A stretch of 32,000 bases of DNA, taken from the NCBI RefSeq assembly GCF_000010625.1, contig NC_010296.1, positions 2,400,001-2,432,000 on the forward strand, read 5' to 3'. The stretch is from Microcystis aeruginosa NIES-843 (GTDB taxonomy: Bacteria > Cyanobacteriota > Cyanobacteriia > Cyanobacteriales > Microcystaceae). Numbering within the stretch: the first letter of the stretch is position 1; every line of letters starts with the position of its first letter. Of this stretch, positions 15,323 to 18,502 are shown in pieces. The translations under genes and the position numbers were made by a program. A model generated the notes under the pieces. It ran no database searches. It was not told the DNA's origin and saw only the letters and a program-made list of their open reading frames with translations.

Positions 15323-18300
15323 TTATGCTTTCCTCAACCATCTTTTTAACAATCGCCACAATGCCACTATTATCCCCCCAATTAAAACTAAAGGAAACTT
15401 AATCACCCCCAGAAAGAAAGCAACGATTAAGGGATATTTTTGGGTTTCTAATTGCCGAATTTTATCATCGCAATCTTGAACATCCGCTGCTAACCCCAAT
15501 GCTTGAAATAATTCCCGCGACTGAAGAAATGCTTCTTTCGCTTCCGATATACGTTTGAGTTTATAGTAGGTAAGTCCCAGATTAAACCAAGCATTCGCTT
15601 CACCCCCCCGATCACCGATTTCCCGTTTGATTGCTAAAGACTGTTGATGAAACTCGATCGCTTTTTGGTATTCTCTTAGGGAATAGTAAACATTGCCTAA
15701 ATTATTGTAGGATGCCGCTTCACCCCACCGATCACCGATTTTTCGCGTGATTGCTAAGGATTGTTGATAAAACTCGATCGCTTTTTGGTATTCTCCTAGG
15801 GAACGGTAAACATTGCCTAAACCCATGTAGGAATTCGCTTCACCCCCCCGATCACCGATTTCGCGTGTGATTGCTAAAGACTGTTGATAAAACTCGATCG
15901 CTTTTTGGTATTCTCCAAGGGAATTGTAAACATTGCCTAAATTATTGTAGGAAGACGCTTCACCCCCCCGATCACCGATTTCGCGTGTGATTGCTAAAGA
16001 CTGTTGATAAAACTCGATCGCTTTTTGGTATTCTCCTAGGGAATTGTAAACATTGCCTAAATTACCGTAGGATTTCGCTTCACCCCCCCGATCACCGATT
16101 TCCCGTTTGATTGCTAAGGACTGTTGATAAAACTCGATCGCTTTTTGGTATTCTCCAAGGGAAGAGTAAACAGTGCCTAAATTATTGTAGGAATACGCTT
16201 CACCCCCCCGATCACCGATTTCCCGATCGATTGCTAAAGACTGTTGATGAAACTCGCTCGCTTTTTGGTATTCTCCTAGGGAATAGTAAACATTGCCTAA
16301 ATTACCGTAGGATTTCGCTTCACCCCCCCGATCACCGATTTCGCGTTTGATTGCTAAGGACTGTTGATGAAACTCGATCGCTTTTTGGTATTCTCCCAGG
16401 GAATTGTAAACATTGCCTAAATTATTGTAGGATGCCGCTTCACCTCCCCGATCACCGATTTCCCGAAAGATTGCTAAAGACTGTTGATGAAACTCGATCG
16501 CTTTTTGGTATTCTCCTAGGGAATTGTAAACATTGCCTAAACTGGTGAGGGATACGGTATATTTCCAGTTGGTTTGCTCCTCCTGTTGTTGGTAAACAGT
16601 GACTAATTCAAGGTAATAATCGGCTAGGGTTTGATAATACCCCCGTCGGGTGAGAAAATCATCGATAGCACGGAGAATATCAAAAGCATTGTCGTACTCG
16701 GTTAACTGATAGCGATGATAGAAAATTTCTAGGTAAGGTTGCACATCGTTGAGGATTTCCCAGGAGTCGGGTTGAGCAATAGAAAGATAATAGGCGATCG
16801 CTTTTTGGTGTAATTCCCTTTGATCGCCGGCTTTGTATTGTGCATATTCCCAAACTAAAGGCTGAAAACTAAAAATTCGCTGGCGATTTTCCTCTTTTTC
16901 TTCTAATAATGATCGTCGCTGTAATTCTCGCAGATCTGCCGTGATCTCGGACAGTGCGATCTCCGGGTAATTATCCATCACTGCTTTGGCTGCCGGAGAA
17001 TCAAATTCTCGGCGATAAATGCTGGTTTTAGTGAATAATTCCTGCTGTCTTTGGCTAAGTCGCTGAAAACTAGCATCTAAAACTAAAGCAATTCCCACTG
17101 TCTCTTGACGATGACTCCCCACCACCTGCGGATCGCTCAAAAGTTGCGATAAATTTCCTAATCCTAAATCCGCTAACCTTTCTAAACTGGGATTTTGCGG
17201 AAATTCTGCTAAGATTAAATCCGCCACCAATCGCAGGAGTAATGGATGACCATCCACCCGTCGAGAAAAGTTCTCTAGATCCCCTGTTATTTGCGATTCT
17301 GCTAACAATTGCGCCCCTTCAGGAGGTTTCAAACCTTTTAGCTCGATCCAACGGTTAAAACCCCTAGTTTTGGGCTTTTCTCTGGTGGTGACTATAATTT
17401 TGCTCGTGTCACCTTTTTCTATCCAAGCAGTGAAAAACTGCTGATAAAATTCATTATTCCAAGAACCATCTTCCCCTAATAAACTCTCTAGATTATCGAT
17501 AATAATTAGGTGGCGATGGCGTTGCAATTGTCTGATTAAAGCTTCCTGTAAATCTATTTCTTTTTCGGGGACAGGATAACCAAAGTCCGTCAGGAGTTGG
17601 CGAGCTAAACCACTAAATCCGCCCAGATTTCCCGCTTCCCACCAAAAGCGTTTTGGGAATAAATCTTCATCGTCCCCTAGGGAAGGATCGAGGGGAATTT
17701 CCTCCTCAAAAATTTTGCTGGCTAGGGTAGATTTTCCAATTCATCCAACTCCTTTGATGCCAATCATCGCAACATTTTGATCATTAAACCACTGCTTAAT
17801 TTGGGTGATTTCCTCCTCCCTTCCCTGCCAATAGGCGAGACGTTTTCGAGCATCTCCTCCCTTGAAAATACTCCTTTGACTACTGCGATTATTTTCTATT
17901 GCGTCTGCTGTTGCGTGCAGATCCGCCAGTCATTCAGGAGGGATTCCTAGATTTAAATTACCCTTAACTTCTTGAATGTTCAATTGTTGTTTAATATCTT
18001 TGTTTATTTGTGTACCAATTTGAGTTTTTGTTTCTGTTTGATTCTGATTAATTGTCATAATTTGTTGTGCTAGGGTTTGGATTTCTTGGGCAAAATTGGG
18101 GTCTTTGAGCATTTCTACCTGTAAAAAAGGAACCACTTGCTGTTCAATCATCGCCTCGGATTTAGTTTGTTCGGCTGCCGCTAAAACCTGAGCTGCGGTG
18201 GGTTCCTTTTGTAACTTTTGCTTAATTTTTTGCCACAATTCTACACCTTTATCCATTGCTCCTTCCGTTAATTTACCGATAACAGCTTCAAAGGCGATTT

Positions 18301-18334
18301 TAGCGATTTCGGCGGCGGCTAACTCTGCTAACAT
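15323..18334 (-). pseudogene. STAND NTPase: N-terminal helical domain, NB-ARC-like P-loop NTPase, eight TPR units and a C-terminal TM anchor; interrupted by two in-frame TGA codons
   Basis: Track ORFs 17930..18343 and 15323..17527 and the stretch between them are all in one frame. Manual translation of 17929-17528: LADLHATADAIENNRSSQRSIFKGGDARKRLAYWQGREEEITQIKQWFNDQNVAMIGIKGVG*IGKSTLASKIFEEE...RHRHLIIIDNLESLL. That gives Walker A G.GG(*)IGKST and Walker B LIIIDN. The TGAs are at 17932-17930 and 17743-17741. The C-terminus YPLIVAFFLGVIKFPLVLIGGIIVALWRLLKRWLRKA is hydrophobic. Confidence 0.85.
15560..16545 (-). repeat. Eight near-identical 120-bp tandem repeats encoding 40-aa TPR units, plus one degenerate unit
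   Basis: Unit consensus SYNNLGNVYNSLGEYQKAIEFHQQSLAIKREIGDRGGEAx. On the plus strand it reads as CTTCACCCCCCCGATCACCGATTTC...AACTCGATCGCTTTTTGGTATTCTCC every 120 nt. Confidence 0.95.
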
Positions 18335-18502
18335 AATTATCAATTGCGAGAATTTTTCGCCATTCTAGCACAACGGCAACAGCAGTTGTGGACGGTTTAA
18401 ATGTTTGGTTGACTGTTCAAAAAGTAAAAAACAAAACTCTGATATCGTTGCCACAACAGGATTGAGATTAGGGCGAAGCGGACGCGCTGGTAAGCTAAGA
18501 CA

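Follow-up and report, generated by a model that had tools for sequence, protein, structure and literature searches.

The subject of this report is a minus-strand locus of Microcystis aeruginosa NIES-843, located in a 32,000-nucleotide (nt) stretch of contig NC_010296.1 (positions 2,400,001 to 2,432,000, referred to here as the window), in which a gene for a small effector of the HeLo-like Bell kind is followed, in the same reading frame, by the frame of a NOD-like receptor (NLR) built from an NB-ARC domain and tetratricopeptide repeats (TPRs). On the basis of comparative sequence analysis, we favor with moderate confidence an account in which programmed readthrough of the UGA codon between the two, or −1 frameshifting in related loci, would produce an abundant free effector along with a rare effector–NLR fusion. 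Modules that pair a Bell effector with an NLR are known; the novelty, which we consider reasonably but not firmly supported by the sequences compared, would lie in a recoding-type junction within such modules.

Translation of positions 15300-18400 yields, on the minus strand from 18334 to 15323, a single frame of approximately 1,000 codons with two internal stops, both TGA, just as an earlier annotation of the window, made from the sequence alone and called here the first-pass annotation, had described it. The effector ATG lies at 18334. The first TGA (TGA#1, 17932-17930) follows ...KGNLNLGIPPE, the second (TGA#2, 17743-17741) falls within G-I-K-G-V-G-stop-I-G-K-S-T, and the NLR ends with a TAA codon at 15325-15323. 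Along the NLR frame, the order is linker, NB-ARC domain, helical/winged-helix region, TPR array, and hydrophobic tail. Two versions of the locus, form A and form B, occur in Microcystis; the window carries form B. Its features are as follows.

17930..18334, minus strand: gene for the 134-amino-acid (aa) Bell-type effector BAG02495.1, TGA#1 included (exact protein match)
18050..18334, minus strand: Bell helical domain, residues 1-95 (five-helix bundle in the AlphaFold2 [AF2] model; form-A Bell proteins about 99% identical)
17933..18049, minus strand: variable C-terminal tail, residues 96-134 (...INQNQTETKTQIGTQINKDIKQQLNIQEVKGNLNLGIPPE), part of the form-B cassette (Q/N/I-rich; predicted local distance difference test [pLDDT] score <50)
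17930..17932, minus strand: TGA#1 in the context GAA-TGA-C, the effector stop and proposed site of programmed readthrough (conserved across form B)
17901..17926, minus strand: small hairpin GCG-GA-UCUGC-ACGCAACA-GCAGA-CGC (minimum-free-energy structure; 5-bp core 8 nt past TGA#1)
15323..17929, minus strand: NLR frame, 868 codons plus TAA, in frame with the effector gene (translation, Pfam)
17303..17818, minus strand: NB-ARC domain PF00931, residues 38-209 of the NLR frame (Pfam, E 1.5e-9)
17741..17743, minus strand: TGA#2, a nonsense codon in the P-loop GVG-G-IGKST in place of GGA (Gly), private to NIES-843
15474..16613, minus strand: TPR sensor array of at least 8 tandem 120-nt (40-aa) units (repeat search, TPR_12)
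15347..15436, minus strand: C-terminal hydrophobic segment YPLIVAFFLGVIKFPLVLIGGIIVALWRLL, a putative membrane anchor judging by its sequence

A conserved stop codon between effector and sensor

The first-pass annotation treated the whole frame as one gene broken twice. For TGA#1, this view fails because the N-terminal open reading frame (ORF) is a separate gene elsewhere. TGA#1 is the stop of a widely annotated 134-aa gene, and it is in frame in 22/22 Microcystis form-B loci, in the diverged loci L002, L003, and L014 (Bell domain 58% identical), and in L029. Ortholog alignment, which had been proposed along with the two-lesion view, gave GGA or GGG at the TGA#2 site and no sense codon at the TGA#1 site; a collection of 5.8 billion sequences likewise held no protein that spans the junction with a sense codon at TGA#1. 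TGA#1 is almost certainly a conserved native stop. The same annotation had offered recent inactivation or tolerated stops as explanations. Recent inactivation stands for TGA#2, for which nothing in the comparison indicated readthrough; for TGA#1, the comparative evidence favors toleration through programmed readthrough. The continuity of the frame is also not a matter of chance, since 21 further Microcystis loci, as well as several additional lineages of cyanobacteria, have the same in-frame TGA junction.

In form A, the commonest Microcystis version, the Bell protein ends ...NQENIAMNATAYDNSTVKQVGKIEADTVNF-TAA, and a 202-nt spacer leads to an NLR that begins at an ATG of its own and has the N-terminal sequence MTSETNSNEINLSATAQAQSKVNLIGKIETKNLIL. 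Dyrka et al. (2020; bioRxiv 10.1101/2020.01.06.895854, Table S2) catalogued this pair for M. aeruginosa SPC777 and CACIAM 03 as one that shares a bacterial amyloid signaling sequence (BASS) motif, BASS10, with 'IAMNATAYDNSTVKMVGKIEADTV' on the Bell protein, 'NEINLSATAQDQSKVNLIGKIEAKTVIVS' on the NLR, and 204 bp between them. In Microcystis, form B and the published form are of roughly equal frequency. The two forms share the Bell domain (nt −41 to +280) and the NLR body from SIFKGG on, at about 95% identity. Between these shared parts, with sharp breakpoints, lies a swapped cassette of 460 nt in form A versus 185 nt in form B. The form-B cassette supplies a different tail, the TGA, and 20 linker codons in the same frame, and it has no NLR-side motif. 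Form B therefore departs from the pattern of a motif on both partners, as only some 20 motif-free linker codons precede the conserved IFKGG; the pattern would be restored only if the NLR arises by readthrough.

Start codons for a separately translated form-B NLR are scarce. The only canonical start between TGA#1 and the Walker A motif is the ATG of codon 55, which precedes the P-loop glycine by five codons. This codon is ACG in L023, L027, and L032 (where the local peptide reads VATIGIKG), and in L023 and L027 the first canonical start is codon 137, beyond the P-loop. Because usable canonical start codons are wanting, the NLR starts in public databases are inconsistent: some entries begin at MIGIKG just before the P-loop, others at a TTG beyond the P-loop, and still others at CTG, ATT, ATC, or ATA. 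Protein clusters P0064-P0068, whose entries begin LQRHRH..., were considered as pseudogenes and rejected as such, given that the P0068 locus (L027) is open from TGA#1, its first canonical start being the TTG at codon 137; these entries are probably gene-caller artefacts. In most strains, the form-B NLR frame stays open for 748-988 codons. The ratio of nonsynonymous to synonymous substitution rates (dN/dS) is 0.29 within each of the two forms, and the form-B NLR is under purifying selection.

An ATG overlaps TGA#1 itself (GA-ATG-A, 17929-17888) and opens an ORF of 14 codons, MTGGSAR.SRRNRK, in Microcystis and of 6 codons in L014. As a start for the NLR followed by a +1 frameshift, this A-ATG-A was discarded, for the frame ends early and offers no plausible shift site.

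The effector and its tail

Judging from its sequence, the 134-aa protein is a HeLo-like, membrane-targeting cell-death effector of the Bell kind. The first-pass annotation had likened the N-terminal helix to the membrane-targeting alpha-1 helices of coiled-coil (CC) domains in NLRs. This comparison has held up because the module belongs to the Bell family of Dyrka et al. and is in that way related to membrane-targeting domains of the CC/HeLo type. The protein is short, and its N-terminal domain of about 100 residues is all-helical, with the five helices of the AF2 model at residues 7-18, 24-41, 45-57, 60-77, and 79-117 and block-mean pLDDT values of 73-92 (mostly 84-92) over residues 1-100. 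Its N-terminal helix, MLAELAAAEIAKIAF, is hydrophobic. The start, MLAELAAAEIAKIAFEAVIG, has an acidic residue (E) at position 4, slightly off the "position 2 or 3" that defines Bell proteins. Over residues 1-92, the protein shares about 99% identity with form-A Microcystis proteins; the tail of the latter (residues 104-127) is what Table S2 of Dyrka et al. gives as the Bell-side BASS10 sequence of EPF21721.1 and OCY15710.1.

The family is large and uniformly short. Identical copies of the BAG02495.1 sequence occur on at least 23 contigs, and its 90% cluster has 187 members. The 93 close homologues are all at most 189 aa long, and a library of 1.8 billion proteins contributes 334 further distant homologues, mostly of 120-150 aa. 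The 134-aa ORF matches no Pfam or NCBIfam family, and in PADLOC neither the effector nor the NLR matches a model, with scores at noise level (E 1e-3 or weaker).

Although residues 1 to about 95 are conserved, the last 35-40 or so come in alternative versions. The form-B tail is rich in Q, N, and I and has alternating hydrophobic residues, with K, P, and L present too. It is kept in the diverged lineages L014 and L029. The 5.8-billion-sequence collection yielded no instance of this tail at the N-terminus of a long protein or on any NLR. The possibility that it is a diverged BASS10 motif was examined with a profile hidden Markov model built from 22 Bell-side and 42 NLR-side motifs, and it was rejected: the tail scored 0.5 bits versus 0.1±2.0 for shuffled sequences. 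Elsewhere, Bell domains with a BASS9-like motif are fused to CHAT–TRADD-N–TIR (P0295, 617 aa) and to GUN4 (P0251), and at L057 (Acaryochloris pREB4, 39569-40525) the protein WP_012167821.1 joins a Bell domain and a BASS9-like motif to an uncharacterised C-terminal domain of 170 aa.

The sensor

Profile searches bear out the first-pass assignment of the downstream frame to STAND NTPases of the NB-ARC/TPR kind. NB-ARC (PF00931) is matched with an E value of 1.5e-9 and 37.9 bits against a gathering score of 23.5, and the TPR_12 array is matched with an E value of 2e-107 and 351.8 bits, giving the architecture of an NB-ARC domain plus superstructure-forming repeats. In the database, this NLR is BAG02494.1, a "tetratricopeptide protein" of 644 aa whose annotated start lies far downstream; it is identical (100%) to cluster P0071. 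The TPR units are mostly 88-92% identical to one another. Across the orthologue clusters P0001-P0062, protein lengths step by exactly 40 aa (577, 617, 657 ... 897; 654, 694 ... 974), and TPR repeat number is therefore polymorphic between strains, as in fungal and bacterial NLR sensors.

A hydrophobic stretch lies within the last 38 residues of the NLR. The first-pass annotation had presented a C-terminal membrane anchor as an unusual architecture; it turns out instead to be a family trait, kept in Microcystis, Pannus, and some Nostocales, while most Nostocales have a W/R-rich amphipathic tail in its place. Either kind of tail would be expected, from its composition, to hold the sensor at the membrane.

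Junction classes in related loci

Every Bell-to-NLR junction that could be fetched was surveyed; the lineages are partly related. The junctions fall into three classes. In class 1 (Microcystis form A, L015, L017, L018, L053, L056, and L058), effector and NLR are separate genes: the effector ends in TAA or TAG, and the NLR, in any frame, begins at a start of its own and carries a copy of the motif as well.

In class 2, an in-frame TGA ends the effector, and the NLR continues in frame 0 with no intervening stop, no motif, and usually no canonical start. Its members are the Microcystis form-B group, L039, L040, L045, a locus on plasmid pCC7120gamma of Nostoc PCC 7120, and six Acaryochloris plasmid loci. 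The effector tails differ, ending ...NINPG or ...VNNPG in L039 and L045 and ...HNHNSV in L040, which adds two further tail types. In L039, the first start is a TTG that already lies inside the P-loop. Among the plasmid loci (pCC7120gamma plus Acaryochloris), 5/7 have zero canonical starts in the 55 codons leading to the P-loop, and the Prokaryotic Genome Annotation Pipeline (PGAP) assigns them ATT, ATC, or ATA. The stop is followed by C in Microcystis, L029, L040, L045, L046, and 6/7 plasmid loci, the last in the context TGA-CTA; the exceptions are L014 and L039 (TGA-A) and L055 (TGA-G).

In class 3, the frames overlap. The effector ends in TAA or TAG, and the NLR ORF, in the −1 frame, opens 7-73 nt before that stop. 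Ahead of the P-loop, L042 and L044 offer no canonical start at all, and the only one in L016, L019, and L020 is a single TTG situated well past the junction. Slippery heptamers stand in register 0-2 codons before the stop, namely A_AAA_AAG in L042, L016, and L041, G_GGA_AAG in L019, and G_GGA_AAC in L020; the heptamer of L044 is atypical and non-canonical. In L019 and L020, the heptamer is kept over differing residues (GKE versus GNQ), which points to selection at the nucleotide level. Alternatively, the A7 runs could act by transcriptional slippage.

Two regularities extend across the classes. The stop is TGA at all in-frame junctions and TAA or TAG at all separate-gene or −1-frame junctions. 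Also, the peptide right past the stop or shift site is homologous between class 2 and class 3, following the pattern (L/V)T.E...(V/L)LE...KL.QG, and it is therefore evidently translated without a preceding start. Uninterrupted Bell–motif–NB-ARC–TPR proteins exist as well, namely P0253 (967 aa) and P0326 (957 aa).

A predicted hairpin downstream of the stop

In Microcystis, the sequence after TGA#1 reads CTGGCGGA-TCTGC-ACGCAACA-GCAGA, which corresponds to an 8-nt spacer and a 5-bp stem with an 8-nt loop, extended by GCG/CGC. This hairpin is the minimum-free-energy structure in all variants folded, and among some 24 sequences, variable sites fall in the loop or a bulge only, save for one change from G:C to G:U. 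Most class 2 loci have a hairpin of 5-6 bp located 8 nt past the UGA. The Acaryochloris and Nostoc loci repeat this geometry with a different sequence: 35/35 base-pair cells are paired, 4/5 pairs vary, and there is one compensatory change (U:A to C:G). Slid controls are at most 57% paired, and RNAalifold returns the same helix. As evidence for a stimulatory RNA element, the hairpin is suggestive only. Just 3′ of it, L047-L049, L051, L052, and L054 have an invariant AAAGUUA that can pair with the stop-containing UGACU. RNAfold predicts this outer helix in L047-L049; the invariance of the motif leaves no scope for a covariation test.

A proposed recoding mechanism

UGA is the leakiest of the stop codons, and UGA-C is its weakest context. 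The class 2 loci show the sequence hallmarks of readthrough: the downstream ORF is in frame and open, its coding conservation begins at the stop, it lacks a start of its own, and both the identity of the stop and its leaky context are conserved over orthologues. In the class 3 relatives, the hallmarks are those of −1 frameshifting, with an X_XXY_YYZ heptamer in register and a downstream −1 ORF without a start; these pertain to the relatives and not to the window. Taken together, these comparisons make programmed UGA readthrough at the window's junction the explanation we would choose, although with some reserve.

The mechanism could operate as follows. Most ribosomes would stop at UGA-C and release free effector, and a small fraction would read through to make a Bell–tail–NB-ARC–TPR fusion. 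Readthrough would in this way fix the effector-to-sensor ratio and give the sensor the effector's own tail. By analogy with fungal HET-S/NWD2 and with Bab/Agp, a ligand on the TPR array would cause the sensor to oligomerise via NB-ARC, the clustered tails would template or recruit free effector, and the Bell domain would then permeabilise the membrane, resulting in abortive infection or cell suicide. In related loci, −1 frameshifting at A_AAA_AAG or G_GGA_AAG/C, or perhaps transcriptional slippage on A7, would lead to the same fusion. Readthrough and its efficiency, the inserted residue, the trigger, and the amyloid or templating role of the tail are all postulated here.

More broadly, we think it fairly likely that a substantial proportion of cyanobacterial Bell/NLR modules are single recoded translation units in which recoding replaces the duplicated motif. 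The class 2 and class 3 NLRs would then lack a start and a motif of their own because recoding supplies both. To a similar degree, and jointly with that proposal, duplicated motif and recoding would segregate as alleles at one Microcystis locus.

The coupling of sensor to executioner is a central question in the cell-death field, and bacterial NLR-like proteins and HeLo/Bell pore formers are regarded as kin of the plant, fungal, and animal cell-death machinery. If the recoding account is true, one ORF would give two products at a fixed ratio with a shared templating tail, a new form of such coupling. It would also provide rare cellular cases of bacterial UGA readthrough and −1 frameshifting, one of them plasmid-borne in the model strain Anabaena/Nostoc PCC 7120. 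The inconsistent annotation of these NLRs, with starts at ATT, ATC, or CTG, inside the P-loop, or past it, would be accounted for, and many database entries would be truncated. Moreover, bloom-forming Microcystis, where phage defence and strain-level cell death are ecologically relevant, would offer a natural allelic comparison between canonical and recoded pairs.

A nonsense mutation in the P-loop of NIES-843

TGA#2 is very likely a private nonsense mutation. Its T is a G in 21/21 other form-B loci, including nine that encode the identical 134-aa protein. The Walker A motif GxGGxGK[ST], broken in NIES-843 (GVG-TGA-IGKST), is intact in those 21/21 loci, and the P-loop reads GIKGVGGIGKST in all of the approximately 60 Microcystis orthologue clusters that cover it. 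Since every orthologue examined has either GGA or GGG as its P-loop codon, the first-pass proposal that a single G-to-T change removed the P-loop glycine is correct. The NLR frame of NIES-843 is otherwise intact at 868 codons, equal to L010 and L026, and its closest relative differs at 14/1770 nt; for these reasons, the inactivation appears recent. TGA#2 costs the conserved P-loop glycine and truncates the sensor, making this a recent null allele that leaves the effector gene orphaned. NIES-843 is thus a strain with a null sensor allele beside an intact effector gene.

Because this is a single base in a single assembly, and the P0071 cluster has one member on one contig, a sequencing or assembly error in the NIES-843 record, with an intact sensor in the living strain, has to be considered. 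We rate it as improbable: other strains have separate loss-of-function NLR alleles, so that a real nonsense allele is unremarkable, and the NIES-843 genome is one that we take to be finished.

Sensor loss seems to have occurred repeatedly, with the effector gene being retained. L030 (PCC 9809) has an NLR without the TPR array. L031 and L033 are also altered, in that one ends ...CDQAIRQL without the hydrophobic tail and L033 is truncated at the start of the TPRs. In L029, nearly the whole NLR is deleted.

Alternative explanations for the junction

Several observations weigh against programmed recoding. Programmed readthrough of cellular genes is rare in bacteria, and the readthrough or frameshift product is predicted here from comparative sequence alone. 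Within Microcystis, the ten codons past TGA#1 contain four nonsynonymous changes (two to proline) and zero synonymous ones, a pattern as compatible with a spacer that is not translated as with a flexible linker. When Microcystis and L014 are compared, nucleotide conservation around the junction is high, at 0.85 versus a mean of 0.58, but this is not the top window, and the value at third positions (5/7 versus 0.48) is not significant. The hairpins are small, their energy is no better than that of shuffled sequences (z −0.2 to −1.5), and L045 has none after its UGA. The A_AAA_AAG heptamers are partly a by-product of a conserved ...EKK peptide ending. As the lineages surveyed are not fully independent, simple counts of junctions overstate significance. 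The form-B tail is only a putative amyloid, as it falls outside the BASS10 profile. Finally, when the AF2 Bell model was compared with PDB structures by Foldseek, no match had an E value below 1, and Bell membership is for that reason assigned by sequence homology to catalogued proteins. Mutual similarity among HeLo/MLKL/Bab-type families is very low (bioRxiv 10.1101/2024.11.07.622273).

Effector and NLR might instead be separately translated neighbours, the NLR beginning at a weak or non-canonical start or by termination–reinitiation at the effector stop, with the shared frame being incidental. Candidate starts exist: ATA at +11, CTG at +1 or +4, and the ATT or ATC chosen by PGAP. Codon +11 is start-like in three related lineages (ATA in Microcystis, TTG in L014, and ATG in L029), and the hairpin, which ends 1 nt before this codon, could couple the two translations. 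L055 has a GTG directly past its TGA (TGA-GTG), and L040 (GTG at +9) and L049 have GTGs further downstream; with such start-like codons near some junctions, independent or re-initiated translation is possible at some loci. The wholly nonsynonymous changes in codons +1 to +10 agree with this explanation, and weak starts would keep a dangerous sensor scarce. Even so, it does not account for why the stop is always TGA when the frames are continuous and never otherwise. There is no canonical start before Walker A in L023, L027, L039, L047, L048, L051, L052, and L054, the relatives combine in-register slippery heptamers with an NLR that is always in the −1 frame, and the peptide right past the stop or shift site is conserved across loci. 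Furthermore, it is only these NLRs that lack the N-terminal motif carried by all separately translated partners. We consider separate translation unlikely overall, though it keeps appreciable weight. Decay of a once-continuous Bell–NLR gene, which would make both TGAs lesions and the form-B sensor dead in all strains, is far less probable. Continuous Bell–motif–NB-ARC–TPR proteins do exist elsewhere, and loss-of-function alleles are common, as seen in the missing TPR array of L030, the truncation of L033, the large deletion of L029, and TGA#2 in the window. Against decay, the position of TGA#1 is the same across 22 Microcystis loci and across lineages with just 58% identity, the NLR is open for 750-990 codons with the dN/dS of the canonical allele (0.29), and the junction type recurs with unrelated tails, always with TGA, where random decay would scatter all three stops. 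Least credible of all is the decoding of TGA as an amino acid, whether as selenocysteine or through a reassigned code (Trp or Gly). It gains something from the position of TGA#2, where Gly is expected and which code 25 would read as Gly, and from the hairpin past TGA#1, which recalls a bacterial selenocysteine insertion sequence (SECIS). But TGA terminates at least one other long ORF of the window (29325-30998), the other long ORFs are free of internal TGA, and GGA at the P-loop of other strains marks TGA#2 as a mutation and not a conserved codon. In Rfam, neither a SECIS model nor any other family hits the junction (E up to 5), no homologue has a sense codon, Cys or other, at TGA#1, and hundreds of genomes have the 134-aa product annotated as a protein by itself. 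To our knowledge, cyanobacteria also generally lack the machinery for selenocysteine.

Comparison with known systems

Recoding of this general type has precedents in bacteria and their phages, including the UGA readthrough that extends the Qβ coat protein to A1, the −1 frameshift at A_AAA_AAG that gives τ and γ from E. coli dnaX, and the G/GT tail chaperones. Frameshifting has been reviewed by Atkins et al. (2016, PMC5009743). The loci described here resemble these cases in the UGA-C context, the dnaX-type A_AAA_AAG of the relatives, the hairpin 8 nt on, and the prediction of two products that share an N-terminus at a fixed ratio. They differ in that the classical cases have no role in immunity or cell death, the dnaX frameshift product is the shorter one, and recoding is known here from sequence comparison only. 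No relevant account of readthrough or frameshifting in Bell, NLR, or defence systems emerged from a literature search, which covered a searchable library that is itself incomplete.

The framework for Bell/NLR modules comes from Dyrka et al. (2020; bioRxiv 10.1101/2020.01.06.895854), who described Bell effectors and NLRs sharing a BASS motif (BASS1-10), with the C-terminal amyloid motif of the small HeLo-like effector templated by the same motif on the NLR, and who noted Bell–NLR fusions as rare. Compared with the Microcystis BASS10 pair EPF21721.1/EPF21720.1, the form-B locus is of the same genus, gene order, and strand and has the same neighbours in some strains (L001 and L005). Its Bell domain is about 99% identical and its NB-ARC/TPR body about 95% identical, and both are presumed to consist of a small effector and an adjacent controlling NLR. 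Form B differs by exchanging the BASS10 tail, the 202-nt spacer, the NLR ATG, and the NLR-side motif for the 185-nt cassette. The tables of Dyrka et al. 2020 contain neither the form-B motif nor NIES-843. Readthrough is not mentioned in that work; frameshifting was not among the terms looked for there.

The only experimental model for the action of Bell-type effectors is Bab/Agp, an amyloid-signaling abortive-infection system of E. coli in which phage infection results in damaged membranes and death of the cell (Ibarlosa et al. 2024, bioRxiv 10.1101/2024.11.07.622273); the function of Bell/NB-ARC pairs is still open according to that study. In Bab/Agp and HET-S/NWD2, the C-terminal motif of a helical pore former is converted by the same motif on an adjacent repeat sensor. 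The form-B sensor, in contrast, is NB-ARC-TPR and would gain the motif, along with a Bell domain, only through recoding. The predicted readthrough product would have the same architecture as all-in-one NLRs such as plant CC-NLRs, fungal HeLo-NLRs, and the Bell–NLR fusions P0253 and P0326. Those proteins are encoded by single uninterrupted ORFs, whereas the conserved stop of form B also yields free effector, presumably in excess.

Neighbouring features

The effector/NLR pair occupies at least 3 chromosomal neighbourhoods among Microcystis strains (L001, L005, and L030-L038). These are characterised by tRNA-synt_1f (class-I tRNA-synthetase-like) with a methyltransferase, by MurT/GATase_3/cupin, or by BrnT/BrnA, and in EAWAG127a a phage-type integrase comes next after the pair. 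Such varied neighbourhoods suggest mobility or frequent rearrangement.

Upstream of the effector gene, a 74-nt palindromic element (18523-18596) includes a terminator-like stem at 18567-18555 on the minus strand. Both of its strands score equally against an unrelated miRNA model, at chance level (E 0.45), and the element could be the terminator of the upstream gene or a small repeat element.

On the plus strand, convergent with the NLR, positions 13402-15219 hold four tandem paralogous small ORFs (135, 103, 146, and 113 aa) separated by identical 105-nt spacers. They encode coiled-coil proteins, with weak matches only to XhlA, apolipoprotein, and P10-like families. In PCC 9809 (L030), the small-ORF array is deleted along with the TPR region, and in Microcystis sp. 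BLCC-F210 (L005) a similar array past the NLR comprises five ORFs with 113-nt spacers.

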